In this document: positions 8,129 through 64,000 of the stretch, in pieces
Numbering within the stretch: position 1 is the stretch's first letter
Layout of the letters: the number at the start of each line of letters is the position of its first letter
From: a virus
Taxonomy: Duplodnaviria; Caudoviricetes
DNA: 64,000 nt
Virus record (IMG/VR): IMGVR_UViG_3300043391_000675
Span: 1 to 64,000 of that record
Strand: one strand, 5' to 3'
Notes under the pieces: generated by a model
What the model was told of the DNA's origin: nothing
Seen by the model: the letters and a program-made list of their open reading frames with translations, nothing else
Databases searched by the model: none
Position numbers and translations under genes: made by a program

Positions 8129-8129
8129 A

Positions 8130-8279: not shown

Positions 8280-8337
8280 AGTATTACTCCTATAGGTTAT
8301 TTATTTAGGCGGGACTAGTATTCCGCTTATCCATCTA

Positions 8338-23249: not shown

Positions 23250-23253
23250 TAAA

Positions 23254-23892: not shown

Positions 23893-24449
23893 TTAATAAA
23901 CTTGTTAGGCAATATATCTAGCAAAAGATGAATTCGCTCTGTGCTTCCATTGTTTTCTACGCTATGAAGGAGGCTGTTATTTATTTCCCAACATTCTCCC
24001 ACCTTCATGTTTTTGCTTTCTTTATTAACAAAGAAAAGTACATCTTCATTTGTTGTTATTGGAATGTGGTGCCTTCTAACTGCCCCCAAGTAGTCCATTT
24101 TATCCGTATGCTCTCCAACATTTTTATTTTCAGGAAGCTTAATAAAAAGACATTTGCCAACCCTACCATCATGAATTAACTCAAGACTTTTAACAATTGG
24201 AGAAACAAGATCAATCATAACTGACTGACTATCATTTACTTTTAAAGCATATTTATTGCCGAAGAACCAGTTAGTTGTATGGTCATAAATAAATATAGAG
24301 TTGGTTTCTTTATGCACTTCGTATGACATTTGTCTTTCTTTGTCTACAAACCACTCATCGGAATATTGCAATATGTGATCTGATATTTTTGATACGTCGA
24401 ACTTCCCGTGAAACTTATAGTTAAATGGCTCATCTATTTTGCTAATCAT
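23889..24449 (-). CDS. Aspartyl/asparaginyl beta-hydroxylase family oxygenase (paralog of 5247-5879)
   Basis: HTD..YL.AVRR.HIPITTN...ECWEINN..HSVEN..RIHLLLD. Confidence 0.85.
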   Translation of the reverse strand: MISKIDEPFNYKFHGKFDVSKISDHILQYSDEWFVDKERQMSYEVHKETNSIFIYDHTTNWFFGNKYALKVNDSQSVMIDLVSPIVKSLELIHDGRVGKCLFIKLPENKNVGEHTDKMDYLGAVRRHHIPITTNEDVLFFVNKESKNMKVGECWEINNSLLHSVENNGSTERIHLLLDILPNKFIK

Positions 24450-25829: not shown

Positions 25830-27893
25830 TTACTTTTTCTCCTTAATAAATAAATCAGCATTCATAACCTTTGTCCATGCTGAAACAAAATCATTTACAA
25901 ACTTTTCTTTAGCATCATCTGATGCATATACTTCTGCAATCGCTCTAAGCTCTGAGTTAGATGCAAGAATTAGATCTACACGAGGAATGTTTACTGCCTG
26001 GCTTGCATTGGTATATGAAAGTAATTCAACTAAATAGCTATTGTCTAGCTTATCTTTAGCTAATGTTCTTAGACCAGATAACAGTACAACTAATTCTACT
26101 GGAGTTAAGCCTAGAAGATTAGCTTTTTCTACTAGTAGTACCTCTTCTGGCTCTGTAATGCTCCAATGAACATAGTTACGGAAAGGATCAAACTTTGGTT
26201 CAAGAACTGCAAATGATTCAACATCTGTCTGCTCTTGCGTTGCATCTCCACGCATAAACTTTGCAGTGATATCAGCACCAAATCCAGAATTCTTAGCACC
26301 AATTCCGACACCAACGCTTCCAGCAAACACAATTAGATCTGCTAGAGATACGTTGAAGTCTGCCTTAATACTATTTAAAACAGAAACTACTCTGTTAATA
26401 GCTTCATGGTCATTTACTTCCCATGTATTCTGTGGAGCAAGAACAATTCTTGCACCATTAGCTCCACCACGCTTGTCTGTCTTGCGGAATGTTGATGCAG
26501 ATGCCCAAGCAGTTGCAACTAAATCAGAAACAGAAAGCCCAGATTCAATAATTCTTTCCTTAATGATATCTACTTCCTCTTGTACCAATGTAGTTCTTGT
26601 TACATTTCCAACTGGATCCTGCCAGATTAATACTTCAGAAGGAACTTCCTTACCAAGGTATCTTGAAATAGGACCCATGTCTCTGTGTGTTAATTTAAAC
26701 CATGCACGAGCAAAGACATCTGAGAAGTAATCAAAGTCTTCAAGGAATCTTCGTGAAATTTTTTCATACTCTGGATCAAATCTCATTGCAAGGTCTGCTG
26801 TTGTCATTACTGGAGCGTGAAACTTTCCTTCAATGTGTGCATCTGGAACTAAATTAGCAGCAGACTCATCTGAAGGAATCCATTGCGTTGCGCCAGCAGG
26901 TGATTTGGTTTGCTTCCAATCATACTTAAACAATAGCTTAAGGTATGAGTTATCCCACTTAGTAGGAGTTGCAGTCCATGCACCTTCAATACCACTTGTT
27001 ATTGTGTCTTCTGCATTTCCCTTGCCAAAAGAGCTCTTCCATCCGAGACCAAGCTCTTCAATAGGAGCAGCCTCTGGGTTTGGACCAACATGTGAAGGAT
27101 CTCCAGCGCCATGTGCCTTACCAAATGCGTGTCCACCTGCAATAAGTGCAACAGTCTCTTCATCATTCATTGCCATACGAGCAAAGGTTTCACGAATATC
27201 TCGTGCAGAAAGAACTGGATCGGGGTTTCCGTTAGGTCCTTGAGGGTTTACATAAATCAAACCCATCTGTACAGCAGCAAGGGGATTTTCTAATTCACGG
27301 TCTCCGCTATAGCGGTTATCTGCAAGCCATTCTTTTTCTGCACCCCAGTATGTGTCATCTGATTCCCAAACATCTGCACGTCCACCAGCAAAACCAAATG
27401 TCTTAAATCCCATGTTTTCAAGAGATACATTGCCTGCAAGAATCATTAGGTCTGCCCATGAAATCTTCTTGCCATACTTCTGCTTAATAGGCCATAATAG
27501 TCTGCGAGCCTTGTCTAAGTTACCATTATCTGGCCACGAGTTTTGTGGAGCAAATCTGTGCAGACCTTCTCCAGCACCACCACGTCCATCAGTTGTTCTG
27601 TATGTACCAGCAGAGTGCCACGCCATGCGAATAAAGAAAGGACCATAGTTTCCGTAATCTGCAGGCCACCAATCTTGCGAGGTAGTTAAAAGAGTATTGA
27701 TATCATCTTTTACAGCATCAAGGTCTAAACTATTAAACTCTGTAGCATAGTCAAAATCATCTGACATGGGGTCAGACTTTTCTGAATGATTTCGCAATCC
27801 TGATAGATCTAGTCTGTTAGGCCACCAATCTTTGTTCGTATTGTTTTCTGTAGAATGTGCTCTACCTGTTACTGGACATCTTTCTTCGCTCAT
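25830..27893 (-). CDS. katG: Catalase-peroxidase KatG
   Basis: [11 protein letters not shown] distal motif, GLIYVNP (adduct Tyr), MAMND (adduct Met), GGHAFGK proximal His, GGANGARI. Confidence 0.96.
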
Positions 27894-45279: not shown

Positions 45280-45516
45280 TTACCATTTGTCTACAGGACA
45301 AGTGGCTAATTGAAGCTTTGTTTTAGCCGCCATAAAGCAGCCACATTCAGAACATGTTTTAGTTGTCTGATTAAAAAGAGGGCATTCTAAGCATATAGAA
45401 TACCTTTTATCAGCTAAATCCTTATCTGCATACTCTGTATTTGGATCTAGAAAATCCCATGGCTTTACCCCATCGGAAGTTACTAGATTTTTCATCTGTT
45501 GCCATTTGCTAGCCAA
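45280..45516 (-). CDS. Cys-rich protein (DUF6171-like)
   Basis: ICLECP...TCSECGCFM..K...ATCPVDKW; TTG start at 45516. Confidence 0.7.
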   Translation of the reverse strand: MASKWQQMKNLVTSDGVKPWDFLDPNTEYADKDLADKRYSICLECPLFNQTTKTCSECGCFMAAKTKLQLATCPVDKW

Positions 45517-45748
45517 TTTCTTCTCGCTTTTCAAAACCCGTTCCATTCCACAAATATCCTTCTGCGGGAGTTGGTAAATCATCAATATCTAATTGAAGAT
45601 CTTCCATATCAATAATGGTTGGATTGCTTGCTAGTGCTGATCTAAGAAGAAATGTTTCTTGTGTTCCAGTAGGTATATTAAACCAACCAGCAAACTCTCC
45701 TTCAATTAAAACCATATAGGTGCTTCCACCTAGATCTAATTTATTCAT
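45509..45748 (-). CDS. Hypothetical protein (tail fibre-associated?)
   Basis: ORF track; GYLWNG motif. Confidence 0.65.
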   Translation of the reverse strand: MNKLDLGGSTYMVLIEGEFAGWFNIPTGTQETFLLRSALASNPTIIDMEDLQLDIDDLPTPAEGYLWNGTGFEKREEIG

Positions 45749-45804: not shown

Positions 45805-48800
45805 TTAGTACCCCCGAAATGTTGGAGGGAAGAACGGTGTTGCAAATGTAGGTGGGAAGAACGGTGGGAAGAACGGTGGGAAGAACGGTGGGAAGAACGG
45901 ACCGCCCTTAAAGCTTGGGAAGAACGGTGGGAAGAATGGGAAGAACGGTGGGAAGAATGGGAAGAACGGTGGGAAGAATGGGAAGAACGGTGGGAAGAAC
46001 GGTGGGAAGAATGGAGATTCAAAGAACGGTGGGAAGAACGGTGGGAAGAACGGTGGGAAGAACGGTGGGAAGAACGGACCGCCCTTAAAGCTTGGGAAGA
46101 ATGGCCCAACTACACATGCCTGAGTTTCTGAAGTTACGCATGGGTTTCCAGAAGGACATGTTCTTGTTCTTGATTGAGAAGAGTTTACACAAGTACTCCA
46201 TGCTGACCAAGCGGTGCAACCAGCTGCTTGTGTTGCATCGCAATTGCAAGGTGTTCCGCATGCTGGATATCCAGATGTGCTGCAGGAAGTTGAATATCCA
46301 GATCCGCTACCACTAATGTTAGAGGCTTCAATTGATTGTGAGCAACCAGCGCAGTTAAAGTTAACACTTGTTGTACAGTACCATGTACTGCATGCTTCAG
46401 TTTCAGATGTTGTACAAACATTTCCTGAAGGACAAGTTCTAGTTCTAGTTCGTGTGCCACCAGAACAAGCGCTCCAGGCAGACCATGCCCCACACTGACT
46501 TGCAACGCAAACACAAGGTGTTCCGCATGCTGGATATCCAGATGTGCTGCAAGCGGTTGAGTAGCCAGATCCGCTGCCGCTTATGTTGCTACTTTCAATT
46601 GATTGTGAACAGCCAGCACAGTTGGAGTTAACGCTTGTTGTACAGTACCATGTACTACAAGTTTCAGTTTCAGATGTTGTACATGGTGATCCTGATGGGC
46701 AAGTTCGTGTTCTAGTTCTTAGTCCTCCAGAACAAGCGCTCCAAAAGCTCCAAGACCCACAAGCGTTGCTTGCAGTGGCATCACAAACGCAAGGCGTCTG
46801 GCATGCTGGATATCCAGATGTGCTGCAAGCGGTTGAGTAGCCAGATCCGCTGCCGCTAATATTACTTCCTTCAATTGAATACCCACAACCATAACAGTTA
46901 GCTGGCGTACTTGTTGTGCAATACCAACACTGTTGTGATTCTGAAGTTGAGCATGGAGATCCAGAAGGGCAGACTCTTGTTCGAGTTCTGTATCCTCCAG
47001 AACAAGCACTCCAAGCAGACCAAGCTCCGCAAGCACTATTCTGTGTCGAATCACAAACGCAAGGAGTAGCACAAGCGTAGTAAGATCCATTTTGATTACA
47101 TGCCGTTGAGTAGCCAGATCCACCACCGCTTATGTTACTGGACTGAATGGTGTAAGAACAGCCAGCACAGTTTGAGTTAAGGCTTGTTGTACAATACCAG
47201 CACTGCTCTGTCTGTGTTGTTACGCAGGGGTTACCAGCAGGGCAAGTTCTAGTTCTTGTTCTTGTATGGCTTGCAGAACAAGCACTCCATTCACCCCACG
47301 CACCGCATGCGCTTTCTGCAGATGCACTGCAAACACAAGGTGTAGCGCATTCGTAGTAAGTTCCAGTTTGGTTGCATGCCGTTGAGTAGCCAGATCCACC
47401 ACCGCTTATGTTACTGGACTGAATGGTGTAAGAACAGCCAGCACAGTTTGAGTTAAGGCTTGTTGTACAGTACCAGCACTGCTCTGTCTGTGTTGTTACG
47501 CAAGGGTTGCCAGCGGGACAAATTCTTGTACGGGTTCTTGTGTGGCTTGCAGAACAAGCACTCCACTCACCCCAAGTACCACATGCGCTTTCTGCAGATG
47601 CACTGCAAACGCAAGGGGTAGCGCAAACTGGATATGCTATTGAACTGCATGCTGTTGAATATCCAGACCCACTACCGCTTATGTTAGTTGATTCTATTGT
47701 TTGGCTACAACCAGCACAATTAAAATTAACGCTTGTTGTACAGTACCAGCAATTTTCAGTTAATACATCGTCACTTTCAACTATAGTACAATCTAACATA
47801 TTTTCAATCTTAGTTCTAGTTTTTGTTCTAGTTCCATTAGAACATTCAGAATATGGTCCGTACTCAGTATATGTAGTAGATACGCAACATGATGGAGTAG
47901 TATAACATGCAATGGAGTAGCCAGATCCAGTTGCACTTACATTTGTTGGTGACTCAAAAGTACTGCAAGATATTGGTGTCGATTGAACATAAGAAACACA
48001 ATACCATGTACCTGTTGTTTCACAAATTGGAGCCGATACTTCATAGTCATAAGAAAATGCAGTTAAATCTATATCATTAATTTTTGAAGTTGTTACAGTT
48101 ACACAGGACGGTTGATCTGATTCTATGTCTGTAACGAATATTGTATTTCCAGTTCTAGAAGCATTTCCATTTGTGCAGCTTAGCTCTATATCAAATGAGC
48201 TGATGTCTGAGTAGTTTAATATTGTAACTTTAAAAGAAGTGGCGGTAGCGTCAAATGCTCTTGATAGCATAGCCTGAATACCCCAATTAAGAACTCTAAT
48301 GCTTTCTGTAACAGTATTACTTTCTTTTAGCGGTATAGATGTTCCGCCTAATGCAGTAACAGATACATTATACAAAGCATTCTCAGTAAGTCCAGTAACT
48401 ACTGCAGATGAATCTGTAGTAGTTACTGGGTATCCAGGTATAGAAATACCTGTTTGATTTCTTTTTATATCTACACGATATTGTGTTGCATTTGTAGAAA
48501 GCCAATCTACAGAAAATGATGTTCTTGTTCTATTAGAAAATGTAATAGTTGGATCTTCAATAACTCCTGGCTGCCAGTCTATAAACGCAAGCTCTTGAGT
48601 TGGACCAATTTCAGAATATCTTACACCAGTAAATTCTCTATAATAATCATCAGCTATGATTGACAGCTCCCACTGATAGCTATCATTAGGGTCTAAACTA
48701 TTTGGCAAATTGATTGTTACTGAAGTGTCAGTGAGCAATACTGGTTCTGGCACATAAAGCTTTTGAACACCTGCACTATCATATAAGCTTATTATCTGTG

Positions 48801-49521
48801 ACCACATATATGTCGGAACCTGAGCGGGTGTTATTGTTGCTGGATCGTATGCCCAAGATAGGGTTACAGATGTCTGAGTTTCATCTGTAATATCAAATGA
48901 TGATATGTTAAACCAGTATCTGGCTGCAATTCCTAGGCCTGGAAAATTAACATCAGCTTCCCCACTACTATTTTCAGCTTTTATTTTGCCTCTAAATTTT
49001 ACTTTATTAAGCACATTTGCTTTTGTTATTAATGGCCTGTTAGATGCGCTCACTGGGACTTGATATAGATAATCTGCATCTGAATAATCATCATATTGTT
49101 TAACTACAGGTGTTATTAAATCTGTCCATGTAGAATATGGAGGATCTGATTTTTGTATATACATAGTAAATTTTGTAGGCTCTTCATTCCATTGGCCTCT
49201 TACTAAATACATTTTGTCCCCATTAAAAGGAGAATCTATTGATTCAAATCCGTCAGAGCTAATAAATGTAAGTGATGGTGGATTTGCTGTTTCAGCATTA
49301 GGCACATTAGTTCCAAATATTTTAAACCAAAGTCCTGACGTTCCTAGTTGCCAAACACTTTTTACTCTTAGCCAGCCATCAATAACCCATGGGTTAGAGC
49401 TTAATCCAGAGTTTATTGTGTCTGAAACAGAAGCTTTTCTCCAGATGCTTCGAATCTTTACCCATCCGTTTATATTATGAGCACCAGTATCGGTTGCGCT
49501 AGTTTTTCTCCAGATGCTCAT
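45805..49521 (-). CDS. Putative tail fibre/adhesin with FN3-like domains, TSP1-like Cys repeats and (PFFP)n tail
   Basis: In the tail block; FN3-like segments (SVTLSW, FSVDW...YRV...YNVSVTA); six full 12-Cys repeats. Confidence 0.8.
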   Translation of the reverse strand: MSIWRKTSATDTGAHNINGWVKIRSIWRKASVSDTINSGLSSNPWVIDGWLRVKSVWQLGTSGLWFKIFGTNVPNAETANPPSLTFISSDGFESIDSPFNGDKMYLVRGQWNEEPTKFTMYIQKSDPPYSTWTDLITPVVKQYDDYSDADYLYQVPVSASNRPLITKANVLNKVKFRGKIKAENSSGEADVNFPGLGIAARYWFNISSFDITDETQTSVTLSWAYDPATITPAQVPTYMWSQIISLYDSAGVQKLYVPEPVLLTDTSVTINLPNSLDPNDSYQWELSIIADDYYREFTGVRYSEIGPTQELAFIDWQPGVIEDPTITFSNRTRTSFSVDWLSTNATQYRVDIKRNQTGISIPGYPVTTTDSSAVVTGLTENALYNVSVTALGGTSIPLKESNTVTESIRVLNWGIQAMLSRAFDATATSFKVTILNYSDISSFDIELSCTNGNASRTGNTIFVTDIESDQPSCVTVTTSKINDIDLTAFSYDYEVSAPICETTGTWYCVSYVQSTPISCSTFESPTNVSATGSGYSIACYTTPSCCVSTTYTEYGPYSECSNGTRTKTRTKIENMLDCTIVESDDVLTENCWYCTTSVNFNCAGCSQTIESTNISGSGSGYSTACSSIAYPVCATPCVCSASAESACGTWGEWSACSASHTRTRTRICPAGNPCVTTQTEQCWYCTTSLNSNCAGCSYTIQSSNISGGGSGYSTACNQTGTYYECATPCVCSASAESACGAWGEWSACSASHTRTRTRTCPAGNPCVTTQTEQCWYCTTSLNSNCAGCSYTIQSSNISGGGSGYSTACNQNGSYYACATPCVCDSTQNSACGAWSAWSACSGGYRTRTRVCPSGSPCSTSESQQCWYCTTSTPANCYGCGYSIEGSNISGSGSGYSTACSTSGYPACQTPCVCDATASNACGSWSFWSACSGGLRTRTRTCPSGSPCTTSETETCSTWYCTTSVNSNCAGCSQSIESSNISGSGSGYSTACSTSGYPACGTPCVCVASQCGAWSAWSACSGGTRTRTRTCPSGNVCTTSETEACSTWYCTTSVNFNCAGCSQSIEASNISGSGSGYSTSCSTSGYPACGTPCNCDATQAAGCTAWSAWSTCVNSSQSRTRTCPSGNPCVTSETQACVVGPFFPSFKGGPFFPPFFPPFFPPFFPPFFESPFFPPFFPPFFPFFPPFFPFFPPFFPFFPPFFPSFKGGPFFPPFFPPFFPPFFPPTFATPFFPPTFRGY
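45808..46104. repeat. In-frame tandem repeat of 12-bp (ggtgggaagaac) and 9-bp units encoding PFFP/PFF
   Basis: Directly visible; includes a duplicated PSFKGGPFFP segment. Confidence 0.95.
46114..48006 (-). repeat. About 270-bp tandem coding repeats (six full plus one degenerate)
   Basis: Each unit begins WYCTTS and contains SGxGSGYSTxC and WxxWSxC...RTRxCP. Confidence 0.92.
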
Positions 49522-52500
49522 TATGCTTTCCTACTTAATATTATGTCTCCAACAGAAAACGCTTTAGTTCCTTGATCTCCATCATTAAATTGTGATCTAG
49601 AAGATGCTCCGTCTGGATAATTGTTTCCAGCATAAAAGAAAGCTCTACCCGTAGTCAAAAATCCATCTTGATTTTGTACAACCGTTGTATCTCCAGCTGT
49701 TCCATTGTTGTCGCTTTGAACAGCTAATGCAATTTTAAAAGCAGCATAAGCTTTTTTATCTGGATTTATTGAAAAAATTCCATTTTCATAAACAATAGAT
49801 CTGTTTCCTAGGCTAAAGTTTCCAGCAGATTTTGTTACCCCACCTATAGTTGTGCTTTTGCCAAGAAGGTAATCACTTGAAAAACTAGCTCCGCCCAAAA
49901 ATACGTTAGATGCAACTAAATCTGTTTTAACTTTAAACTCAGATCCATTGTATGTTAAGTTGCCATTAGCTAGTCTAAAATTACCAGATGAGGATATATA
50001 ATCAATATTGCCTGGGTTTCCAGTTCCGCTTCCTGTCTCTGGGTTCCATGTGCCTGGATCGGGTGAATCTGCGCCAGTATTTGCTGCGTACCAATTTGTA
50101 GGATTCCAAAAGAAAACATTTGATCCAACAATATTTCCTCCAGCAATTGTTCCCTGTAAACCATCTAGTTTAACTTTTACTGTGCTACTTCCATCGATAA
50201 ATGATTCTAAAAACTTTCCGTTTATTTTCCATCCACTAGTTATCTTTTTGCTTGTTGCATCATACAATCCAAAGTATCCTGACCTGGCCTCTATAGATCC
50301 AGATAGTGTTGCTTCCTTTGCAATTAAAGATCCACCATATGTTACTGAGAAATTAGGACCAGGAGTTCCTGCCCTATTTCCGCCTGCCCAAATAGCAATA
50401 TCTGATAAAGTTGTTGTATTATAAAAGCCAATATTTTCTCCGTTATTAATAGAAGTATCGGTAATGGCCCAACCACCAATACTTCCCTTCCTTGCAATAA
50501 TTCCATTAACTGGATCTAGCTGAGCATAAATTCCATTTGTTGTATTTGTAACCTGTATGCCAGAACCTACTGTGGATCCAAGCACTGTAGCAAGTTGCCC
50601 AATTTCTACCTTGCCACCAGATGTTCCAGGAACGGTAACCCTCAGCTGTCCAGGGAACACAGTGTCAACACCATTGACTTTAATTGTACCGCCAATATCT
50701 ATTGAGCCAAGTATTCCAGATGATGCTTTTATTACTCCACTGAGTTCTGCATTAACCGCTTTAACCAATCCATCAGTATCAACTTCAAAATTAGAACCAA
50801 CCTTAATTGTTCCACCAGTAATATGAAGATTTTTTGCTTTTACATATCCTGCACTAGTTACTGAGAATTTAGCATCTTCATTTGCATTTACTGAATACCC
50901 ACCAGCTACTCCTCCGCCTGCCCAAAATGCGTAGGTGCCGCTTGGAGATAAGCCAGCATACGTTCCAGTTGTTGCATTTAAAGTATTTTCAATTTTGCCG
51001 CTAGATATAACCCAGTTAGCAATTTTTGCTTTTTGAGTTATAAATGTTGCTGTAACACCGTTGTCTTCACCAATTATTTGCGTTGTTGGATTTGTTCCAT
51101 TTAAATCATTTGAGTCGTATAAAAATAAACCACGCTTATTTATAAGCATTCTTGCACCAGATAAAACTGGATTGTCATTAGCATCTAAAGTGCCAGCAAA
51201 AATAGATCCATCTGTTTTTATCTTGACAGGATTTTCAATTAAAGAAAGAGATGCGACATCTATTATAGTAACCGAAACTGCAGCAGAAATAGTAGCAAGA
51301 CCCTCTTCACATGTCCACTGGCCTTTAACCCAAACTATATTGCCAGCATTTGCTTCATCGTAAACAATCACTGGGCTTGAGTTAGAAGACGCAACAAGAG
51401 AGTAAGTTCCGTTTTCTGTCGAACTTTGGTAAACCTTTATTCCAGTAGCACTGGCATTTAAATTAGAAGATACGCTATACCCATTAGACAATGCTGTTAC
51501 AGATATAGTGGTTGTAATTCCAGAAAGAGGATTTGGTTTTACTGCTGTTGCTAATCCAGATATTGCAACTTGCGTTGTATTTTCATTTCTATATATATCA
51601 AGGTCCGTAACATATCCGCTTGAAAAAGAGCTTGGGCTATCTCCGAATGCGTCTATAATTTTTGATCTAGTTATCTTGACTGAAGTTGTTGCAGATGCTG
51701 CTGCAGAAACTGGATACTCAAAGGATCTAGTTTTGGTTCCAGATGTAAGGTGTACTATAACATAAGATGGTAAATTTAGTGCTGGCATCGTGAAAGAAAC
51801 ATCTAAGTCTCTAACATTCCATACAGCTGATGGATTAATTACTGGGTCTGGAGGTAGGTCATCAAATACAATTTGATCATAAGCTTTTCCTTCAACAATT
51901 GGGGAATCAATAGACTGGCACCCAGAATCAGACAAGTGATTTAATTTAACATATACTGTATTCAATGTATATAATGTTATTGATGCTGGACCAAAGCCTG
52001 TGTACCTAAGAACCCAATTATATGGAGATGCTGTTTCTGAAACATAAACTCTAGTTTCTCTGTATGTTCCAATTTTAGTTGCAGGATCTTGCCAAGAAAC
52101 AATTATGCTGCTATCTGCACTTACAACTGTAGGGGCAAGCGTCGATGCTACACATATAGGGTCTACATAAACAGGTATAGTAAATGGACAATCGTCAGAT
52201 GATCCGTCTCCATATATACTTGTTATCTTTCCTGTTATTGTTGTTTGAAACACTCCGCCAAAGTTTGCCATGTTATTTGCTTGGCTAAGTGTATAGCTGT
52301 ATTGGCTTACTCCAGCTTTTGTAGCAAATGGGACGAAGATTGGCTCTTCTCCTGCTGCAGTTAAAGTTAATTGGAAAAGTCTTATTCTTTCATCACGAGT
52401 TACATTGTCTTCTAAAAATGGCTTTTCCCAAGAAACTTTTAAATCTGCAGTGCTTTCATCCCATACCGCAACAACATTAATTGGGCAAGTTCTTCTTGGG

Positions 52501-52679
52501 CCAGGTGTTCTAAAATTAAATCTGTCAGAGAACTCGCTTGTACCTAAAGTTTTATCGCTAAACACCCAGGCTGCTTGAAGAGCATAATCGGTACTACAAT
52601 CTAAATCTGGAATTACAACATCCCAGTAATCACCATCTTGTTTTTGTGTGATACCTAGATCTGGATATTGTTCTGACAT
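49521..52679 (-). CDS. Large tail/baseplate-associated structural protein
   Basis: 1052 aa; beta-rich FN3-like N-terminal half, Gly-rich IGGW/IWAGG spike-like repeats. Confidence 0.7.
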   Translation of the reverse strand: MSEQYPDLGITQKQDGDYWDVVIPDLDCSTDYALQAAWVFSDKTLGTSEFSDRFNFRTPGPRRTCPINVVAVWDESTADLKVSWEKPFLEDNVTRDERIRLFQLTLTAAGEEPIFVPFATKAGVSQYSYTLSQANNMANFGGVFQTTITGKITSIYGDGSSDDCPFTIPVYVDPICVASTLAPTVVSADSSIIVSWQDPATKIGTYRETRVYVSETASPYNWVLRYTGFGPASITLYTLNTVYVKLNHLSDSGCQSIDSPIVEGKAYDQIVFDDLPPDPVINPSAVWNVRDLDVSFTMPALNLPSYVIVHLTSGTKTRSFEYPVSAAASATTSVKITRSKIIDAFGDSPSSFSSGYVTDLDIYRNENTTQVAISGLATAVKPNPLSGITTTISVTALSNGYSVSSNLNASATGIKVYQSSTENGTYSLVASSNSSPVIVYDEANAGNIVWVKGQWTCEEGLATISAAVSVTIIDVASLSLIENPVKIKTDGSIFAGTLDANDNPVLSGARMLINKRGLFLYDSNDLNGTNPTTQIIGEDNGVTATFITQKAKIANWVISSGKIENTLNATTGTYAGLSPSGTYAFWAGGGVAGGYSVNANEDAKFSVTSAGYVKAKNLHITGGTIKVGSNFEVDTDGLVKAVNAELSGVIKASSGILGSIDIGGTIKVNGVDTVFPGQLRVTVPGTSGGKVEIGQLATVLGSTVGSGIQVTNTTNGIYAQLDPVNGIIARKGSIGGWAITDTSINNGENIGFYNTTTLSDIAIWAGGNRAGTPGPNFSVTYGGSLIAKEATLSGSIEARSGYFGLYDATSKKITSGWKINGKFLESFIDGSSTVKVKLDGLQGTIAGGNIVGSNVFFWNPTNWYAANTGADSPDPGTWNPETGSGTGNPGNIDYISSSGNFRLANGNLTYNGSEFKVKTDLVASNVFLGGASFSSDYLLGKSTTIGGVTKSAGNFSLGNRSIVYENGIFSINPDKKAYAAFKIALAVQSDNNGTAGDTTVVQNQDGFLTTGRAFFYAGNNYPDGASSRSQFNDGDQGTKAFSVGDIILSRKA

Positions 52680-57172: not shown

Positions 57173-57762
57173 ACCTGCTCCAGGGATATATTAACACTCC
57201 AGAAGGGCTGTAAGCCTCTTTTAACGACAGTAAAATCACATGATGTAAACATTACAGTGTATGTGTAATCATCGGCTAAAGCCCCGCCTGACTCCTCTAT
57301 TAACTCTGTAGAAAAGACTGTAGGGTTTAGTTTAATACGAAATGCTCCACGGCCTGCAGCGCTTTCGTAAAAGGCTTTTAAGTCTTCTGCGCCCCAGCCA
57401 CCATCGACTGTTTCGTTTCTAAAAGACGGAACCATTTCCCAAGATGCGGATACATTTAATTTATCTGCAATAAAATATTTTCTTAATGTTCCATTTGACA
57501 TTCTTTGGCCAGATTCAATTCTTTCAACATTTAATGAAAGAGGTGCTCTATTATGCTCAGTAACTCTTCTAAATTTTGTTGCAGTTGTTTTATTACTATA
57601 CGCCAGCCCATTTCTATTTGCAGTTGTAGCGTCATATGTATTTCCTGGTGCAGTAATAGTTGTACCTTTATAATCAAATTGATTATTAGCTGGATCAATT
57701 GCAAATGGGTCTAATGCTTCTATATATAGGATTGATCCTTTTGATAAGTTTTGGAAACTCAT
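57169..57762 (-). CDS. Distal tail (Dit-like) protein
   Basis: First gene after the TMP; RMSNGTLRKY...SWEMVPS...WSVNISLEQV. Confidence 0.65.
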   Translation of the reverse strand: MSFQNLSKGSILYIEALDPFAIDPANNQFDYKGTTITAPGNTYDATTANRNGLAYSNKTTATKFRRVTEHNRAPLSLNVERIESGQRMSNGTLRKYFIADKLNVSASWEMVPSFRNETVDGGWGAEDLKAFYESAAGRGAFRIKLNPTVFSTELIEESGGALADDYTYTVMFTSCDFTVVKRGLQPFWSVNISLEQV

Positions 57763-60700
57763 GGTCTACCAACCTTTCTATTTACTCCAGCAGCCATTTC
57801 TCTAAGTCTCATTTCTTTATGAATTGAAGCGGCAACATCATCTGCTGTAAGATTGGTTCCACTTAAAGATACATTTATATTATACAATGAGCTTGAAGAG
57901 GAAGCAAGACCGCCTTCGTTAAATTTTACCCTGCCACCGCTTGACATCTTTGGAACATTATAACTAACCATTCCGCCAGAAGCCATTTTATTAATATTGT
58001 CTAACATAGGTACGCCAGCTGCTTGGACTGCTTTTGCACTAATTACGTATTCACCATTTGAAAGCATAGCTGGAATTGAATCAGATGTTGCACTGCCAGG
58101 ACCTGATATATATCCTCCATAAGCTTTTTTAATTCTCTTTCCCATTGTTTTTGTTTTTTCGTCCCATGGACGGATATCAACACCATTGTTATCACTTACA
58201 TAGGTTTGTCCATTATATTTAAACTTGTACCATGTCTGATCGTTTATGCTAACCATTGTTCCTTGGCCTTTAGAATAAGCTGATTTGAATCCATCAAATA
58301 CAGTTTTGCCAGTTCCTGTTTGAGCTTTATCTGGGCCGAACTCTACAGTTCCTTTAGGAGGTGTGCCTGGGGCTTTTCCAAGTGCTACCAAAAGATCGGC
58401 ACGAAGCTTAGCCAAGGTTACTCCTCCAGTAATTGAAGTTGCTAGTTTTTCTACGGCAGCTAAGTCTTTTTGGAATACATCAAGTGCTCCTCCGCTAATT
58501 CCAGTTGAAAATACTGGCTTTCCTTTTGCATCAAATCCAGTTGGAGATCCAGTTGGCGCTGTTACTGCAATAGGCTTTCCAGTCTTTGGATCGAAGTACC
58601 CACCGAATGCATCCCGAACTGTTTTTGCAGATAGTCCAGATCCAGATCCAGATTTTTGAATCTCTTTTACTAATGCTATTAACTCTGCAGTAATTTTTGC
58701 TTGCTCTGCGGCCTTTTCTTTTTCAGGAAGTAGTCTTGAGCTTATTGCTCTAGTGCTTAAATCATTGTATCTTGTTTGGAATCCAGTAATGGTTGTGTTT
58801 ATTTCACCTGCAAGGGCTGCATTGTCCTGTTGTCCTTGAAGCGCTAAAGCTTTCTTATCTGATTTATTTTGTATAGACTCAGCATCTTTTTCCAAAGGAG
58901 CCTTTGCTTTGTTAGCTGCATCTTCAATTGCTTTTGAAGCAAGCTCGCTCTGTCTATTTGAAGTTAGCTGATCAATATCTATTCTTGCTCTTGCAGCTGT
59001 TGCCATATCTCCACGAGCAACTGCATCAGCATATTCTATTTGAAGTTTTTGCAACTCTAATGCATAGTTTGATGCATCTTGAGTTGCTCTTAAAGATTCT
59101 AGCTTTTTGTTTTTTTCTTCTTCAATAAGTTTAATCTTTTTAGCAATTGCTTTTAGCTCTTCTTGTGCACTTCTTTGTGAAGCTGCAGCTGCTCTTTGAG
59201 AAGCAGCAGAATTTGCATTAATTGTCTTTTGCAATTTAGCCAAGGCTGCGCCTGTTTGTCCATATGTTGTAGCGCTGTCAGCAGCTTTAGTTAAATCCGA
59301 AATTCCAGTTCCTATTGCAGATGTAAATCCAGCTAATTTATTTGCTAATGTAGAATCAATCTTGCTTAAATCAATATTAATTCCAGATGTAAACAGCTTC
59401 CACTTGGCGAGTATGCCTTTAATTGTATCTGAAGAGTTTGTTATTGATGCAAGTAACGGCTGAGTCTTTTGAAGATTTTCATATGCATTTCTTCCAATTT
59501 CTTCATTCATCTTTGGATTATTTGCTTCTGATTTTGACATAACTAATTGATAAGCTTCATACTCATCAATTACATTACCCAACTCATCTTTAGTTCCCAC
59601 CAAAGCCGACGTTGCGTTTGAGAAAACATTTATTAATCCTTCAAATCCATTTCCAACTTCTTTGCCCCAGTCTGCAGTTCCTGCGCCACTGTTTAAAGTA
59701 TTGACTAAGTTTCCAACTGCAAACTCTGCAGCAGATGACTTGTCTACAATTGATCCAAACTGTACATCGGCTAAAACTTTGTAAGCCTGTGAAGCTTTTT
59801 TACTATTTGCTAAAGCTCCATATATTTTTTTGTTTGCTTCTTCAATGCTCATTCCTCCAGCAACCATTTGTGCCTTTTGATTATTAAGCAATCTTTGCGT
59901 TTCTTCAGTACTGCCCGATCTATTTATAGACTCAATTAAATCCTTGAGTCCCTTACCTTCTTCTTTAGCTTTCTTCATGTCTTCTATAGATTGAGGTATA
60001 CCAGGAATACCAATTGAATTGTTTGCAGATCCTTTAGCTGCTGCGCTCACTAGCTTTTGCTTATCTAAGTAGCCCTGCATTGTTTCTTTAAGATTAAAGT
60101 ATTTTATACCAGCTTGCTCTGCAGCTTTTGCTGTCATAGAAAGACCCATTGAAGCGTCTTGCTTTGCATCTTGATAGTCTTTATATACTTTAAATGCTAA
60201 TCCAGCGGCTGTGATCGCTGCACCAACAAGCCCAAATGCTTTTGCAAATCTTAACACTTGTGCGCCCATTGCGGCTAGCTTTGCTGTTGCTCCAGTGACT
60301 CCTGTAATTCCAGCTTTAGCTGAGGCTGCTCCAGTTTTTATTGAACCAAACATTCTAGCATAAGGAATTGGCATTGAAAGAAGAGAAGATCCTATCATCA
60401 ACCCCATACCTGCTTGCATTCCAGACATGCTGCCAACTTTTTCCTGGTTCATTAAAGCCATTCCGCCCATTGACCCAGCCATACCAATTCCCATTTGAGC
60501 ACCCATGCCCATGCCGCCAGCTCTTTGTGGAACTCTTATGCCTTCTTTTTTTGCTTGTGCCGCAGTCATAGAGTTTCCGTTTACAAGGTATTCGGTTTTT
60601 CTCATTCCCAGAGTTCCTACTTTTCTAGTCTGAACTCCATCTCCTGCATCTCTATACTGACCAATCATTCCTGGCCCAAATAGTCCTTGTGCTGGTGCTT

Positions 60701-63700
60701 GTCCTACAGGATAATTCCTTGCGGCAAATGCGTTTTGCTCTCTAATAATTGCATTCTGTGCTCTATTGGCAAATTTTGTAATTGAGCTTTGAGCACTTTT
60801 TCCAAAATTTACAATCATTTCAGAAGATTTCTTATAACCATTTCCAACTTTATTAGCTGCTGCAAGCAGTTCAAGATTTAATCTTATAGATCCTTTTATT
60901 ACAGAAGATGATACAGACGAGAATGCTGCTGATAGATATTGAGCTTTCATTGCTGCCGAATTTTTAAATGGGTCCATCATGTTGTTAACCATTACTTGTC
61001 CAGGATTATAGAAGCTTGTTGTTCCAGTTCTTACCGCCTGTCTTCCTAGTCCGCTTGTTAATGCTTGCTGGCCAGTAATTTGTCTAGATGAAGCTCTAGA
61101 TCTTTCTGCTGCAGCATCTCTTTCTGCCTGCTCACGTCGTTTAGCTTCCCACGCAGCTCTAGCTGCTGGGTTTCCTGGTCTCTGTGCACCTTTCTTTGCT
61201 CCATAAGCGCTTCTGCCTTTTTTAACTGGCCCACCACCAACTGGTCCTCCATCATTAAGGTATGTTGGGTTAGAGTGTACGGAATGATATTTACTCCAAT
61301 CAACCTCTATTCCATCATCCAACCTTTTGAGCATTGCTTGATAAGGTGGTCTAAGATCTACAGGTAGATCATTTATTATTTTTACCAATTTTGGACGAGC
61401 ATCTTCTAGAACCTTTTTCATCTTTCGACCATATTTTTTAGGGCTCATTTTAGCAATTATTGGGGCAGTATCACGTGCAAAATCTTTTCTTGCTCCACCT
61501 TTAACAGCAAGAAGATTGATCATTGCTTGTTTTTCCATAGAGTTCATTTCATCAGCTTTTGCAAGTGATGTGTTGCCAGATGCTGCTTTAAACACTCCAG
61601 CATTTCCAACATCTGGATTAAAGTTTCCATATACGTTTGATCTAGATAGATCTTTATTATTCATAAGAAGAGAGTTAGCAAGCTGTCTAATTATTGTGTC
61701 TTCTTCCCATGGCACATTAGTGTTTGCAAAGCGTGGGTCATAATCTGATTCTAGTGCAAGCAGCTTGCTTTTCTTTGATGGGTCTAATGGGTTGACAACT
61801 GTTCTAGCTGTTTGAACTGGAGATGATATTCCAAAAAGGTCTCTTGAAATTTGTGTGCCAATTGGCTCATGAACTGCAGTTAATTCATTAGGAACTCCTT
61901 TAACAAAAACCTTTTTCTTACCAACCTTATATAATCCAGATACACCAGGTACAGGATAACTCATTCCTGTACTTGCAGAAATTTGATGTCCATATTCAGT
62001 TACTGGTGTATCAGCAAACTTTCCTAGCGAGCTTCTTGAGCTTAATTCTCTTGCTTTTGCTAAAATCTTTAGTTGTTTTTCTGCAGGTAATAGTTTTAAT
62101 AAAGGAGAAACGTTTCCATAATTTGATCTGCCTTTAGATATAGATCCTCCTGGAATCATTCCACCCATATTAAATGATCCAGCAAGTGCACCTAGTTTTG
62201 GTCTTGCATAAGAATTTCCCATTGCGAATAATCTTCCGCCAAGTGTTGTGATCATTTTAGAGTTAAAGCCCGATGCAGATTTCATTCTCGTCAAGGTAAG
62301 TTGTCTAATAATTTCCTTCATTGTTGTGGGGCCCGTAATTCCCAACTTAGCTTTAAGTTTTTTAATTCCTGCTATAAAGTTGCTCTTTGCTTCATCCTGA
62401 AATGGTGAAACTTCATCTAGAAAAACACCATCTGTACTTTGCTGTAACCAGTTGCCCATCTCGTTAAATGATTTCGCAAGCCCAGTAGATTGACCAACAA
62501 AATTATTTGATCTGACTCCAGTAACATCAGCAAATTTGGCTGCTTCTGCTCTTGACATTCCTTCTTCAACAAGCAGGGCTTGCAACTCTCCTGGCTTAAA
62601 TATTGAAGCAGATCTTTTTGCAGTCATAGTGTGAGATTTAGAAACTGGATCGGGTCCATCTGATACTCCGCCTAAAATTCCAAAAACTTTTTTTGCTTGA
62701 GCTGTAGTTAAAACTCCCTCTTTTATTAAATCGTCAATTACAGATTTCATTGCTCCTGTATATGTCTGAGGAGCTATAGCTTTCATACGAGCTGCTTTTG
62801 CACTTTGATCGTATTTATTTTTACTTGAATATTCATCTAGAATTAAGTTTGCACCTGGGAACTCTTTGCTTAATCTAATAAGTTGAGCTGTTCTTGCCTT
62901 TACAAACTCTTCTGTTTTTCTTGTCCCATTTTTATTTGCTGCTTTTTTAGCATGCTCTGTTGCTGAATCATAATCTGCAGAAACTCTCTTTGTGGCATCT
63001 TTAATATCCATTCCAGTAAGCTGTGATAATATGGCAGCATCAGAAGCGACTGTTGCTGCTCTAATTACCTTTGGATAATCTTTAGAATTAACTAATCTTG
63101 CCCATATGGATAGATTGCTTTCTCTTCCATACCCATATGTACCTCTCATTATCTGACCACCAAAACTGTATCCATTATTAGCCGCATCGACTGCTGCATA
63201 AAGCTCGGGCATTCTTTGAATTTTTGGACCAAACACTGTTTCCTGTGGAGTTAATGCTGCTGTAATCTTTCCGCCGTTTTCATATGTAGCAGAAGCCATA
63301 GCAACAAGTGGTGCGTTTTCTGGATCTAAAGATGCACCCTGGTTTAATACATATCCCCCAACAGGTACACTTCCAAGCCTATCGTCGTAGTTAATTGAAG
63401 ACGGACCAGAAACTGTTGTTCTACTTGGCCCGAACTCTTCAATTCCTCCACCATCTGCAAACTTAGGAATTCTTGTTGCCTGTATACTGTAAGGTGCTCC
63501 GAATGTTCTTACTCCACGAACTCTTCCAAACTCTTCCATTACAGCAGCGTTTGCTTTCTTTTTGTAAAGATCTCTTAAAGTAAATTGTCCGTTGGCATCT
63601 ACAACTGGTTGGTTCATCATAGGAGCTTTTGTTAAATCTATAGATCTTCCTTTACTAGCTGCGTACATGCTGACAGCGGACCCCATGTCTGCTTCTATCT

Positions 63701-64000
63701 GTGCATTAAGTGCAAGTATTCTTGCCTTTGCTTGCTCAACAGTTATCTCTGCGCTTCTCATTTGCTGTACTATTAATGCAGATTGCTCAGCTGCGCTATT
63801 TGCAAACCTTTGTGTTATAGGAAGTATGTCATCGAAGGTGTCTAGTAATTCTCTGCTTACTGTTCCGCCCATTGCAATTGTTTTCTTAAGCATTGCAACT
63901 TCTTGTTCTGTTTGCATACCAAGCGTGGCCATTAATGCGTGGAATTTTGCTGCTTCCCCTGAAACAATTCCTGTAGATATATTCTTTACGCTTGTTAGTC
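57759..64000 (-). CDS. Tape measure protein, 5'-truncated by the window, with inserted domains
   Basis: Frame is open to the window edge (over 2080 aa); Ala/Gly/Lys-rich helices, hydrophobic segments, C-terminal GPGSATSDSIPAMLSNGEYV. Confidence 0.88.
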   Translation of the reverse strand, partial: LTSVKNISTGIVSGEAAKFHALMATLGMQTEQEVAMLKKTIAMGGTVSRELLDTFDDILPITQRFANSAAEQSALIVQQMRSAEITVEQAKARILALNAQIEADMGSAVSMYAASKGRSIDLTKAPMMNQPVVDANGQFTLRDLYKKKANAAVMEEFGRVRGVRTFGAPYSIQATRIPKFADGGGIEEFGPSRTTVSGPSSINYDDRLGSVPVGGYVLNQGASLDPENAPLVAMASATYENGGKITAALTPQETVFGPKIQRMPELYAAVDAANNGYSFGGQIMRGTYGYGRESNLSIWARLVNSKDYPKVIRAATVASDAAILSQLTGMDIKDATKRVSADYDSATEHAKKAANKNGTRKTEEFVKARTAQLIRLSKEFPGANLILDEYSSKNKYDQSAKAARMKAIAPQTYTGAMKSVIDDLIKEGVLTTAQAKKVFGILGGVSDGPDPVSKSHTMTAKRSASIFKPGELQALLVEEGMSRAEAAKFADVTGVRSNNFVGQSTGLAKSFNEMGNWLQQSTDGVFLDEVSPFQDEAKSNFIAGIKKLKAKLGITGPTTMKEIIRQLTLTRMKSASGFNSKMITTLGGRLFAMGNSYARPKLGALAGSFNMGGMIPGGSISKGRSNYGNVSPLLKLLPAEKQLKILAKARELSSRSSLGKFADTPVTEYGHQISASTGMSYPVPGVSGLYKVGKKKVFVKGVPNELTAVHEPIGTQISRDLFGISSPVQTARTVVNPLDPSKKSKLLALESDYDPRFANTNVPWEEDTIIRQLANSLLMNNKDLSRSNVYGNFNPDVGNAGVFKAASGNTSLAKADEMNSMEKQAMINLLAVKGGARKDFARDTAPIIAKMSPKKYGRKMKKVLEDARPKLVKIINDLPVDLRPPYQAMLKRLDDGIEVDWSKYHSVHSNPTYLNDGGPVGGGPVKKGRSAYGAKKGAQRPGNPAARAAWEAKRREQAERDAAAERSRASSRQITGQQALTSGLGRQAVRTGTTSFYNPGQVMVNNMMDPFKNSAAMKAQYLSAAFSSVSSSVIKGSIRLNLELLAAANKVGNGYKKSSEMIVNFGKSAQSSITKFANRAQNAIIREQNAFAARNYPVGQAPAQGLFGPGMIGQYRDAGDGVQTRKVGTLGMRKTEYLVNGNSMTAAQAKKEGIRVPQRAGGMGMGAQMGIGMAGSMGGMALMNQEKVGSMSGMQAGMGLMIGSSLLSMPIPYARMFGSIKTGAASAKAGITGVTGATAKLAAMGAQVLRFAKAFGLVGAAITAAGLAFKVYKDYQDAKQDASMGLSMTAKAAEQAGIKYFNLKETMQGYLDKQKLVSAAAKGSANNSIGIPGIPQSIEDMKKAKEEGKGLKDLIESINRSGSTEETQRLLNNQKAQMVAGGMSIEEANKKIYGALANSKKASQAYKVLADVQFGSIVDKSSAAEFAVGNLVNTLNSGAGTADWGKEVGNGFEGLINVFSNATSALVGTKDELGNVIDEYEAYQLVMSKSEANNPKMNEEIGRNAYENLQKTQPLLASITNSSDTIKGILAKWKLFTSGINIDLSKIDSTLANKLAGFTSAIGTGISDLTKAADSATTYGQTGAALAKLQKTINANSAASQRAAAASQRSAQEELKAIAKKIKLIEEEKNKKLESLRATQDASNYALELQKLQIEYADAVARGDMATAARARIDIDQLTSNRQSELASKAIEDAANKAKAPLEKDAESIQNKSDKKALALQGQQDNAALAGEINTTITGFQTRYNDLSTRAISSRLLPEKEKAAEQAKITAELIALVKEIQKSGSGSGLSAKTVRDAFGGYFDPKTGKPIAVTAPTGSPTGFDAKGKPVFSTGISGGALDVFQKDLAAVEKLATSITGGVTLAKLRADLLVALGKAPGTPPKGTVEFGPDKAQTGTGKTVFDGFKSAYSKGQGTMVSINDQTWYKFKYNGQTYVSDNNGVDIRPWDEKTKTMGKRIKKAYGGYISGPGSATSDSIPAMLSNGEYVISAKAVQAAGVPMLDNINKMASGGMVSYNVPKMSSGGRVKFNEGGLASSSSSLYNINVSLSGTNLTADDVAASIHKEMRLREMAAGVNRKVGRP

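Follow-up and report, generated by a model that had tools for sequence, protein, structure and literature searches.

A putative tail-fibre protein of a freshwater phage with tandem thrombospondin type-1-like repeats

The 64,000-nucleotide stretch of viral DNA analysed here (the window) contains, as the last large gene of its tail module, an open reading frame whose 1238-residue product carries a tandem array of cysteine-rich repeats. Each full repeat pairs an unnamed domain of ~46 aa with four or six Cys (module A; WYCTTS...SGSGSGYS) with a second module (module B) that, by sequence and predicted fold, is a shortened member of the thrombospondin type-1 repeat (TSR) superfamily. From the position of the gene and the properties of the array, we infer with a probability of roughly 0.6 that the protein is a distal or side fibre that is exchangeable, disulfide-stapled and adhesive, this inference extending to its function, its disulfides and its location in the virion. 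TSRs are taught as adhesion modules of animals and apicomplexans; here they would serve as a building block of a tailed-phage fibre.

The gene and its repeat array

The gene and its immediate neighbours are laid out as follows.

49521-52679, minus strand: upstream gene, 1052 aa
45805-49521, minus strand: whole TSR gene, 1238 aa plus stop
48532-49521, minus strand: N-terminal ~330 aa, conserved in relatives with differing distal parts
48316-48546, minus strand: fibronectin type III domain, aa 326-402 (Pfam fn3, E 4.3e-7, 30.5 bits, exceeding the cut-off of 25)
48007-48315, minus strand: spacer domain, aa 403-505, 3 Cys, without family match
47749-48006, minus strand: R0, degenerate first repeat, aa 506-591, 8 Cys (repeat profile 28.4 bits)
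47476-47748, minus strand: R1, aa 592-682 (module A 592-637, TSR module 638-682; TSP_1 17.6 bits)
47200-47475, minus strand: R2, aa 683-774 (TSP_1 18.7 bits)
46927-47199, minus strand: R3, aa 775-865 (TSP_1 17.9 bits)
46651-46926, minus strand: R4, aa 866-957 (TSP_1 19.4 bits), the copy chosen for modelling
46789-46926, minus strand: module A of R4
46657-46788, minus strand: TSR module of R4
46384-46650, minus strand: R5, aa 958-1046 (TSR module alone: TSP_1 22.8 bits, E 1e-4, cut-off 21.6)
46114-46383, minus strand: R6, aa 1047-1136 (TSR module most divergent; TSP_1 9.8 bits)
45808-46113, minus strand: C-terminal tail, 102 aa, 80% Pro+Phe, with PFFPPFF repeats and FRGY at its end
45280-45585, minus strand: downstream 101-aa CxxC protein, DUF6171

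Residues 506-1136 map exactly to 46114-48006 on the minus strand and comprise one degenerate copy (R0) and six full copies of a unit of 89-92 aa. The initial annotation, which had described six full repeats of about 90 aa and one degenerate copy, was thus exact on this point; the 12 Cys that it ascribed to most repeats are in fact invariant in all six full copies, and its estimate of about 80 Cys compares with a count of 83 for the whole protein, 80 of them in the array. Both motifs that it quoted (WYCTTS...NCxGC...SGxGSGYSTxC and CxxWxxWSxC...RTRxC...C...ExxC) are present. R0 retains WYC...GSGYS plus a Y..Y..C...TRTKTRT remnant and gave no match in a Pfam scan. Tandem Repeats Finder returned periods of 267 and 276 nt (scores 801 and 979), and the copies share 65-81% identity in DNA and 64-85% in protein. 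When a 19-repeat profile was run against the 90-kb virus record, exactly seven copies were recovered, all in the TSR gene, the six full ones at 132-146 bits and R0 at 28. Across 19 copies from four phages, the 12 Cys, W59, R72 and R74 are invariant, and this conservation of motif and Cys is far beyond chance; positions in the loops between the Cys differ from copy to copy. Short contigs from four freshwater runs break within the repeats, leaving population copy number unreadable from them; they show one in-frame skip of 813 nt (depth 2, side 20), too weak to count, and slight differences in the length of the Pro/Phe tract that keep the frame. A search for homologues of the repeat region at shorter lengths returned nothing, its candidate list probably being filled by low-complexity words.

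The N-terminal ~330 aa contain two to three hairpin-like motifs (W-x-K-I-[KR]-S-[IV]-W-R) and, since this part is kept while the distal parts differ among relatives, it is presumed to be the anchor to the tail tip. In the ESM Atlas, residues 1-505 gave nothing beyond generic fn3/Ig-like leads, all under 0.85. At the other end, a Pro/Phe tail of like kind occurs on a second protein (348 aa) of the same phage, and in P0002, P0010, P0015, P0016, P0019 and L008-L019. As a whole, the 1238-aa protein was assigned no family by PHROGs or NCBIfam and had zero matches by tblastn in a set of 50,697 phage records that may lack near-identical ones. Pfam and PHROG give no family for the upstream 1052-aa gene; its stop and the start of the TSR gene share nucleotides (TAATG), so that the two may be translationally coupled. 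The DUF6171 CxxC protein likewise follows one further cysteine-module fibre gene (L036).

Affinities of the two modules

That the second module of each repeat is a TSR had been proposed from the letters alone, and profile searches, profile-profile alignment and the predicted fold now support it. TSP_1 is the sole family listed by Pfam for five of the six isolated B modules (17.6-22.8 bits; E 1e-4 to 5e-3); the R5 module alone (22.8) passes the gathering score of 21.6, the others scoring 19.4, 18.7, 17.9, 17.6 and 9.8, and in a scan of the whole protein TSP_1 reaches 13.7 bits, below that cut-off. Against PDB sequences, the repeat profiles matched only proteins with the TSR fold (TRAP, BAI1, TSP-1, midkine). 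A six-repeat profile run against 1.84e9 proteins (1.84 billion representatives) gave 33 matches; most of those scanned among the matches at profile positions ~42-90 carry TSP_1 or TSP1_spondin well above cut-off, and such Pfam-positive proteins were reached at E 7.6e-8 to 1e-4. Alignment by hhalign to 12 Pfam-delimited TSRs, a set drawn from the repeat-profile matches themselves, gave a probability of 98.2%.

The AF2 model of R4 has a pLDDT of 80.7 overall and of 84-94 over TSR residues 56-90, one of five models of the full A-B unit being confident. Every match listed by Foldseek for this predicted fold in the PDB is a TSR-containing structure, with E-values above 0.1 and, in the top 30, mostly an rmsd of 1.6-3 Å over 33-47 columns; for residues 50-90, VIA-align gave Z 3-4.4 to the TSRs of Sema5A, MIC2, BAI1, properdin and TSP-1. 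Foldseek E-values above 0.1 and Z-scores of at most 4.4 are expected for 40-residue domains, each of these structural scores is weak when taken alone, and the WxxW/RxR motif by itself may trigger recall of a TSR from AlphaFold's memory.

In the 19 copies, six module-B Cys are invariant (C48, 56, 65, 76, 82, 90), position 62 holds either W or Y, and most of the copies have a third Arg. The Trp ladder (W-x2-W) and the Arg ladder (R-x-R) can be read directly, their stacking being visible only in the predicted model. In the hhalign alignment, C65, C82 and C90 fall on Cys of the Pfam-delimited TSRs, and C76, which follows RTR, on a column holding Cys in three of the 12. The six-Cys layout matches neither classical TSR group exactly.

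A closer counterpart was found in P0023, P0028 and P0029, which share with module B the spacing C-x5-7-C-x2-W-x2-W-x2-C-x6-8-RTR-x-C-x5-C-...-C (as a regular expression) and align with it gap-free over 34 columns (hhalign, 98.7% probability, E 2.3e-16). P0028 is named by NCBI "thrombospondin type-1 domain-containing protein [archaeon]", and two observations point to an archaeal origin of this type of protein, that name and the presence of an RFC-type clamp-loader gene on a contig. In its Cys layout, module B appears closer to archaeal-type proteins than to animal ones. TSRs are also found in phages: a crAss-like phage encodes a TSP1_spondin protein (P0021/P0048 on L020) within its structural gene block, and A0A6J5N7M8 of an uncultured Caudovirales phage bears the automatic UniProt name "Thrombospondin type-1 (TSP1) repeat". 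A literature search on thrombospondin or TSP1 in phages found no paper describing phage TSRs, and an Aravind-lab paper treats TSP1 as an animal-to-apicomplexan transfer. The label "eukaryote-like" given to the repeats in the initial annotation is not supported in that form, since the CSxTCG cysteine is absent, the alignment to archaeal-type modules is gap-free and TSRs occur in a crAss-like phage. The archaeal-type layout match and the spondin-type TSRs of the crAss-like phage make direct capture from a eukaryote unnecessary, and they support a history of the fold that is old, prokaryote-wide and virus-borne, not a one-off capture of this kind.

In these searches, every protein with module A was a tail protein of an uncultured phage, and its matches with a traceable source come from freshwater or lake metagenomes. 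It also occurs alone in other freshwater phage tail proteins, where its genes adjoin those for Mtd_N, PhageMin_Tail (a tape-measure family) and collagen. Modules A and B are independently mobile. A Pfam match of module A to TGF_beta_GS, on the SGSGSG stretch, is spurious. With module A alone, Foldseek returned nothing better than E 8 from the PDB.

Tail context, function and cysteine chemistry

The gene order is tape-measure gene (TMP), minor tail proteins, tail protein, 1052-aa gene, TSR gene and metallophosphoesterase. The neighbours hit PHROG tail families, and the order is syntenic with Stanwilliamsviridae (gp38-gp48 of Streptomyces phage Blueeyedbeauty), the 1052-aa and TSR genes together occupying the slot of Blueeyedbeauty's single 2021-aa minor tail protein; it is also kept in L005-L007. 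The earlier assignment to the phage tail is thus supported by gene position. The phage encodes WhiB and a DnaE-type polymerase 57% identical to those of Streptomyces phages, and its sequence is present in freshwater metagenomes (the sequencing runs that contain it include no listed RNA run). On these grounds it appears to be an uncultured freshwater siphovirus related to Streptomyces siphophages that probably infects a planktonic actinobacterium of low GC.

P0006-P0012 share only the N-terminal part with our protein (26-33% coverage, 36-40% identity), their distal parts being Flg_new/InlB-B-repeat or fn3 arrays. A survey of repeat number, as had been suggested, showed that it varies among relatives, with two, three, five or six A-B pairs. 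Distal arrays have been exchanged among relatives, and the N-terminal part is conserved.

In the reading that we favour, the fibre would run from the N-terminal anchor through fn3, spacer and A-B array to the Pro/Phe tail, its distal part forming an exchangeable beads-on-a-string rod in which R0 is followed by the six full A-B units; module A would be a beta domain with two or three disulfides. The 72 repeat Cys would pair into 36 disulfides, most probably once the cell has lysed in oxic lake water, and the array so bonded would be a narrow, rigid rod that resists proteases. Its repeated TSR faces and its variable loops may then make multivalent, low-affinity contacts with glycopolymers of the host cell envelope, as a reversible first adsorption, and copy number (2-6) together with whole-array swaps would tune reach and specificity. 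In this scheme the disulfides, the shape of the rod, the binding to the host, the class of ligand and the place in the virion are all putative.

The array could instead be a rigid spacer that provides only length and stiffness, with receptor binding left to the Pro/Phe tail or to the adjacent 1052-aa protein. No other terminal element is shared as widely as the Pro/Phe tail, which occurs after distal parts as different as TSR arrays, lone module A and fn3 arrays; the W/R ladder and the Cys do not vary, as would be expected of a scaffold; and fn3 or Flg_new repeats replace the array in relatives. However, P0003, P0004 and L016 end in module A or a Hint domain and have no Pro/Phe tail, the loops between the Cys vary among copies, and in other systems both TSRs and InlB-type B repeats serve for adhesion; we consider a pure spacer unlikely.

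A fibre resembling extracellular matrix is a more speculative extension, which we regard as improbable. The phage encodes eight prolyl-4-hydroxylase-like oxygenases and one Asp/Asn beta-hydroxylase-like oxygenase, and these may hydroxylate the Pro/Phe tail and the conserved Pro and Asn of module A, while ~36 disulfides would form after release into oxic water; infectivity would therefore be redox-gated. If true, this would be chemistry usually linked with eukaryotes, and it would matter in oxygen-stratified lakes.

We strongly doubt that the array works in the manner of Hoc, adhering to particles, exopolymers, mucus or eukaryotic surfaces and thereby increasing encounters or allowing hitch-hiking. 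Eukaryotic TSRs bind matrix glycans, multivalent weak binders would suit such a role and conservation is limited to the N-terminal part, but the gene lies in the tail-tip/fibre slot and not among head decoration genes, the nearest TSRs by Cys spacing are prokaryotic surface proteins and not animal ones, and no tie of the phage to any eukaryote was found.

The loop and terminal Cys of module A are both present in 26 copies and both absent in four, and such paired gain and loss favours disulfides. Binding of Zn or Fe-S in the cytoplasm, which would make the modules metal-stapled knuckles, would fit the reducing cytoplasm in which phage proteins fold, the search of the 83%-complete virus record for an Erv1/ALR sulfhydryl oxidase (none; only a thioredoxin was found) and the C-x2-C of module A with its nearby C-x-C, but it is very improbable, as the four copies that lack one C-x2-C Cys also lack the distant terminal Cys in the manner of a disulfide pair, no His, Asp or Glu is conserved alongside the Cys in the 19-copy alignment, the module-B Cys fall on positions held by Cys in Pfam-delimited TSRs, and the Cys counts of full repeats and of module A are always even. 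A fibre with ~36 presumptive disulfides that comes from a reducing cytoplasm would be a clean test case for when and how phage structural proteins are oxidized.

Comparison with known systems

Among TSRs (TSP_1, PF00090; TSP1_spondin, PF19028), module B is nearest to "group 2" (TRAP, F-spondin), in which a Cys precedes the Trp motif. The two have in common a strand with W-x2-W, a strand with R-x-R(-x-R), six Cys and a length of ~45 residues; both are used in tandem, in rods that are adhesive (putatively so for module B), and the predicted fold of module B is TSR-like in having an irregular first strand and two beta strands. Module B is shorter than these TSRs and, without the CSxTCG cysteine, has no O-fucosylation site; its B-C loop has just five residues, an extra Cys lies seven residues upstream, it is synthesized in the cytoplasm of a bacterium, and successive copies are invariably separated by an unrelated domain. 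The archaeal-type TSR-like proteins, apparently surface proteins of archaea or ultra-small prokaryotes, have neither module A, nor a Pro/Phe tail, nor a phage context, and have N-terminal segments resembling signal peptides or membrane anchors. The crAss-like TSR protein (225 aa, spondin-type Cys spacing, Pfam 133.8 bits) also lacks module A and is only distantly related in sequence to our putative fibre protein.

For module A, about 20 of the 45 weak structural matches listed have the fold of three-finger toxins, Ly6-uPAR or TGF-beta-receptor ectodomains (VIA-align, Z 2-3.9 over 38-46 residues, rmsd 1.9-3 Å, all weak). Both are small, disulfide-stapled and all-beta, module A by prediction. 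However, roughly two of the three "fingers" are covered, sequence identity is 3-13%, and module A has 4-6 Cys and two or three putative disulfides against the 8-10 Cys and four-disulfide core of the three-finger fold; on the predicted model, this would be resemblance and not membership.

To our knowledge, no described actinophage fibre is made of disulfide-rich TSR units. Because the distal arrays are exchangeable, the family would constitute a natural set of host-range cassettes in phages of abundant, hard-to-culture lake actinobacteria. The nearest parallel is with the minor tail proteins or fibres of actinophages (Stanwilliamsviridae gp43-type), which share the gene position and a conserved N-terminus, and whose bead arrays of fn3, Ig or Flg_new domains are, like the TSR array, swappable C-terminal repeats of variable copy number.

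Modular composition of the cysteine-rich array

45805-49521, minus strand: ORF of 1238 aa carrying the cysteine-rich repeat array
46114-48006, minus strand: repeat array, residues 506-1136, made up of copies R0 and R1-R6

The initial annotation had described six full repeats and one degenerate copy, which was borne out in every detail that matters. The unit (89-92 aa) recurs with periods of 267 and 276 nt (Tandem Repeats Finder scores of 801 and 979), and the copies share 65-81% DNA identity. Exactly 12 cysteines are present in all six full copies (R1-R6), rather than merely in most of them as first suggested, and eight in the degenerate R0; only three of the 83 cysteines in the protein lie outside the array. 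An alignment was built from 19 copies, taken from this phage and from three relatives (proteins P0002, P0003, and P0004 on contig loci L005-L007); the resulting profile gave seven matches across the whole 90-kb virus record, all within this ORF. The 12 cysteines are invariant in the 19 copies at unit positions 3, 11, 14, 34, 42, and 46, and 48, 56, 65, 76, 82, and 90, as are W59, R72, T73, and R74. On the sequence evidence, the unit is two independent domains, A (1-46) and B (47-90): when scored with separate HMMs, module A occurs without B in proteins P0013-P0017, P0019, P0031, and P0036 and at locus L019, and module B occurs alone in non-phage proteins.

The second module had been likened to the thrombospondin type-1 repeat (TSR), and Pfam, profile searches, hhalign, and the predicted fold all agree. 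TSP_1 was the sole Pfam family listed for five of six B modules scanned singly (E 1e-4 to 5e-3). The TSP_1 cut-off of 21.6 bits was exceeded by R5 (22.8 bits), but not by R6 (only 9.8), the remaining modules (17.6-19.4), or the entire protein (only 13.7). Searching all PDB sequences with repeat profiles gave, on each occasion, four matches (TRAP, BAI1 TSR3, thrombospondin-1, and midkine), all TSR-fold proteins with marginal E-values of 0.1-4. The six-repeat profile found only 33 matches among 1.84 billion representatives, and most scanned matches covering profile positions ~42-90 scored far above cut-off for TSP_1 or TSP1_spondin, examples being the Pfam-positive TSR protein P0018 (profile E 7.6e-8) and P0021 (TSP1_spondin, 133.8 bits). 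The B-module alignment matched 12 Pfam-delimited TSRs with a probability of 98.2% (hhalign), these being drawn from the six-repeat profile matches and hence not fully independent. The best AlphaFold2 model of R4, based on the 19-row alignment, had a pLDDT of 80.7 (84-94 over residues 56-90), and the remaining four 56-66. Every listed Foldseek PDB match to this predicted structure contains a TSR (Unc5, C6-C9, MIC2, BAI1, properdin, F-spondin, Sema5A, and TRAP), with probabilities up to 1.0, E-values of 0.16-3.6 and, for most of the top 30, an rmsd of 1.6-3 Å over 33-47 columns; a Foldseek-independent aligner gave Z 3-4.4 to the same families over residues 50-90. The individual scores are small because the domain is 40 residues, but they are concordant and support module B as a TSR.

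Module A is a genuinely unnamed partner domain, with no model in Pfam, NCBIfam, or PHROGs. Common to its 30 non-redundant copies are W1, C3, T4, C14, N22, S24, G27-S28-G29, S31, C34, P40, and C42. Modelled alone, it forms a small beta sheet (pLDDT 83.2; four of five models >80). A Foldseek search with this model found no match, and among the matches listed by VIA-align, three-finger toxin, Ly6/uPAR, and TGF-beta-receptor ectodomains predominated, with a Z of 2-3.9 that signifies weak resemblance only.

Tail location and the fibre reading

57759-63932: tape-measure-sized gene (~2057 aa), a neighbour of the array gene
16987-17160, minus strand: WhiB-family regulator (47.1 bits)
13546-13824, minus strand: thioredoxin (81.3 bits)
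45280-45585, minus strand: DUF6171 small CxxC protein, downstream of the array gene

The proposal that this is a tail protein is corroborated by PHROG tail families on its neighbours and by a gene order matching that of Blueeyedbeauty (Stanwilliamsviridae), which continues with a metallophosphoesterase. Among the neighbours, PHROG 10359 was assigned to a 1089-aa minor tail protein, which also matches proteins annotated "minor tail protein" in 127 Streptomyces phages, and PHROG 9983 to a 286-aa tail protein. Two further neighbouring genes encode 197 aa and 1052 aa, and the stop codon of the latter overlaps the start of the array gene (TAATG). A single 2021-aa minor tail protein in Blueeyedbeauty fills the slot of the 1052-aa and 1238-aa genes. 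The DnaE-type polymerase is 57% identical to those of Streptomyces phages, and the WhiB gene points to an actinobacterial host. The phage has a GC content of ~37% and is found in freshwater metagenomes of several studies; its host would most naturally be a planktonic, low-GC actinobacterium. The DUF6171 protein is also encoded downstream of a module-A fibre gene in phage L036 (6874-7113).

The first ~330 aa of the protein recur in relatives P0006-P0012, which carry Flg_new/InlB-B repeats or fn3 arrays distally. Repeat number varies, with 2, 3, 5, or 6 A-B pairs in close relatives and 12 IMG/VR loci, and the C-terminal ends are a Pro/Phe tail, a bare module A, or a Hint domain. Module-A-only proteins of other phage contigs adjoin Mtd_N, tape-measure family (PhageMin_Tail), and collagen genes. 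The Hint (intein/hedgehog-type) autoprocessing domain follows the last module A in P0004 (L007 1003-4101), where it is preceded by a T-I-D/N/A triplet repeat, as well as at loci L016 and L017 and in P0019 and P0031; such terminal domains hint that fibres may cleave or ligate themselves at the C-terminus.

On the best reading, the 1238-aa protein, whose function we infer, would act as a distal adhesion fibre of exchangeable type. Its parts would be the conserved anchor, an fn3 domain, a spacer domain, a rod in which A and TSR beads alternate and are stapled by disulfides, and the Pro/Phe tail. These disulfides would most likely arise in oxic water once the cell has lysed; the 83%-complete virus record encodes thioredoxin, and a search of it for an Erv1/ALR oxidase found none. 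By analogy with the roles of TSRs and alternative arrays elsewhere, and given the tail-tip position and cassette-like exchange, the array may bind host envelope glycopolymers. As rival explanations, it could be a pure spacer, or it could adhere to non-host material. A third, that the cysteines bind metal, is disfavored within module A: all copies have an even number of cysteines (26 with six, four with four), and the four-cysteine copies, from two loci, lack the loop and terminal cysteines together, a joint loss that argues, at the sequence level, for a disulfide pair (C11-C46).

Pro/Phe tails and candidate modifying enzymes

45808-46113, minus strand: PFFPPFF tail of the 1238-aa protein
~84.2-85.2 kb of the virus record (G000:C1; L002 1228-2274, minus strand): second PFFPPFF tail
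6666-7505; 17460-18095 (minus strand); 78.5-83.7 kb of G000:C1: PF13640 oxygenases
23889-24449, minus strand: Asp/Asn beta-hydroxylase-family protein, 186 aa (PF05118, 53.6 bits)
25830-27893, minus strand: haem peroxidase, 687 aa, catalase-peroxidase-like (PF00141, 213.7 bits, two stretches)
22473-23285, minus strand: APS-kinase-like protein with an extra C-terminal part (PF01583, 58 bits)

Long PFFPPFF tracts finishing in FRGY end two otherwise unrelated proteins of the phage, and comparable tails, PFFPPHF among them, lie at the end of fibre proteins or interrupt them on many related contigs. In-frame length changes of 3 and 96 nt in the tract are seen on contigs from lake runs. The phage carries eight prolyl-4-hydroxylase-like 2OG-Fe(II) oxygenase genes (PF13640), six of which adjoin the second Pro/Phe-tailed protein. 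In two relatives (L006 9599-10174; L007 4101-4679), an oxygenase gene of this type immediately follows the TSR fibre gene, and a third contig (L036 7113-7706) has one near a module-A fibre; these enzymes are possible candidates for fibre modification. The substrates of animal Asp/Asn beta-hydroxylases are Asn/Asp residues of disulfide-rich EGF modules; N22 of module A is an almost invariant Asn. The haem peroxidase gene is flanked by tRNA genes. A 212-aa protein encoded beside the APS-kinase-like protein matched no Pfam family.

Prokaryotic and viral TSRs

Module B has the spacing C-x7-C-x2-W-x2-W-x2-C-x6-RTR-x-C-x5-C-x7-C, with a B-C loop of five residues, and aligns gap-free to modules of P0028 (an archaeal thrombospondin type-1 domain protein according to its NCBI name), P0023 (whose contig carries an RFC-type clamp loader), and P0029 (hhalign 98.7%, E 2.3e-16). 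A crAss-like phage contig (L020; Crass_capsid, CrAss_Ring_1/2) encodes, between capsid and ring genes (8001-8678), a 225-aa protein of three spondin-type TSRs that easily exceed Pfam thresholds. The best BFVD match to our predicted model is an uncultured Caudovirales phage UniProt entry auto-annotated "Thrombospondin type-1 (TSP1) repeat", and prasinovirus TSR proteins are also among the matches. Our literature search found no paper describing TSRs in phages. A different Cys/Trp repeat (e.g., ...YGAW.AFG.C..GERARSR.W...) in relatives P0005, P0013, and P0016 resembles the degenerate R0 and is possibly another variant derived from a TSR.

Given the gap-free match and the TSRs of other viruses, the label "eukaryote-like" in the initial annotation is not needed; judged by its sequence, module B is instead a member of a short TSR variant borne by prokaryotes and viruses. 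Animal TSRs, in contrast, have the CSxTCG cysteine and hence the O-fucosylation site, both of which are absent from module B.
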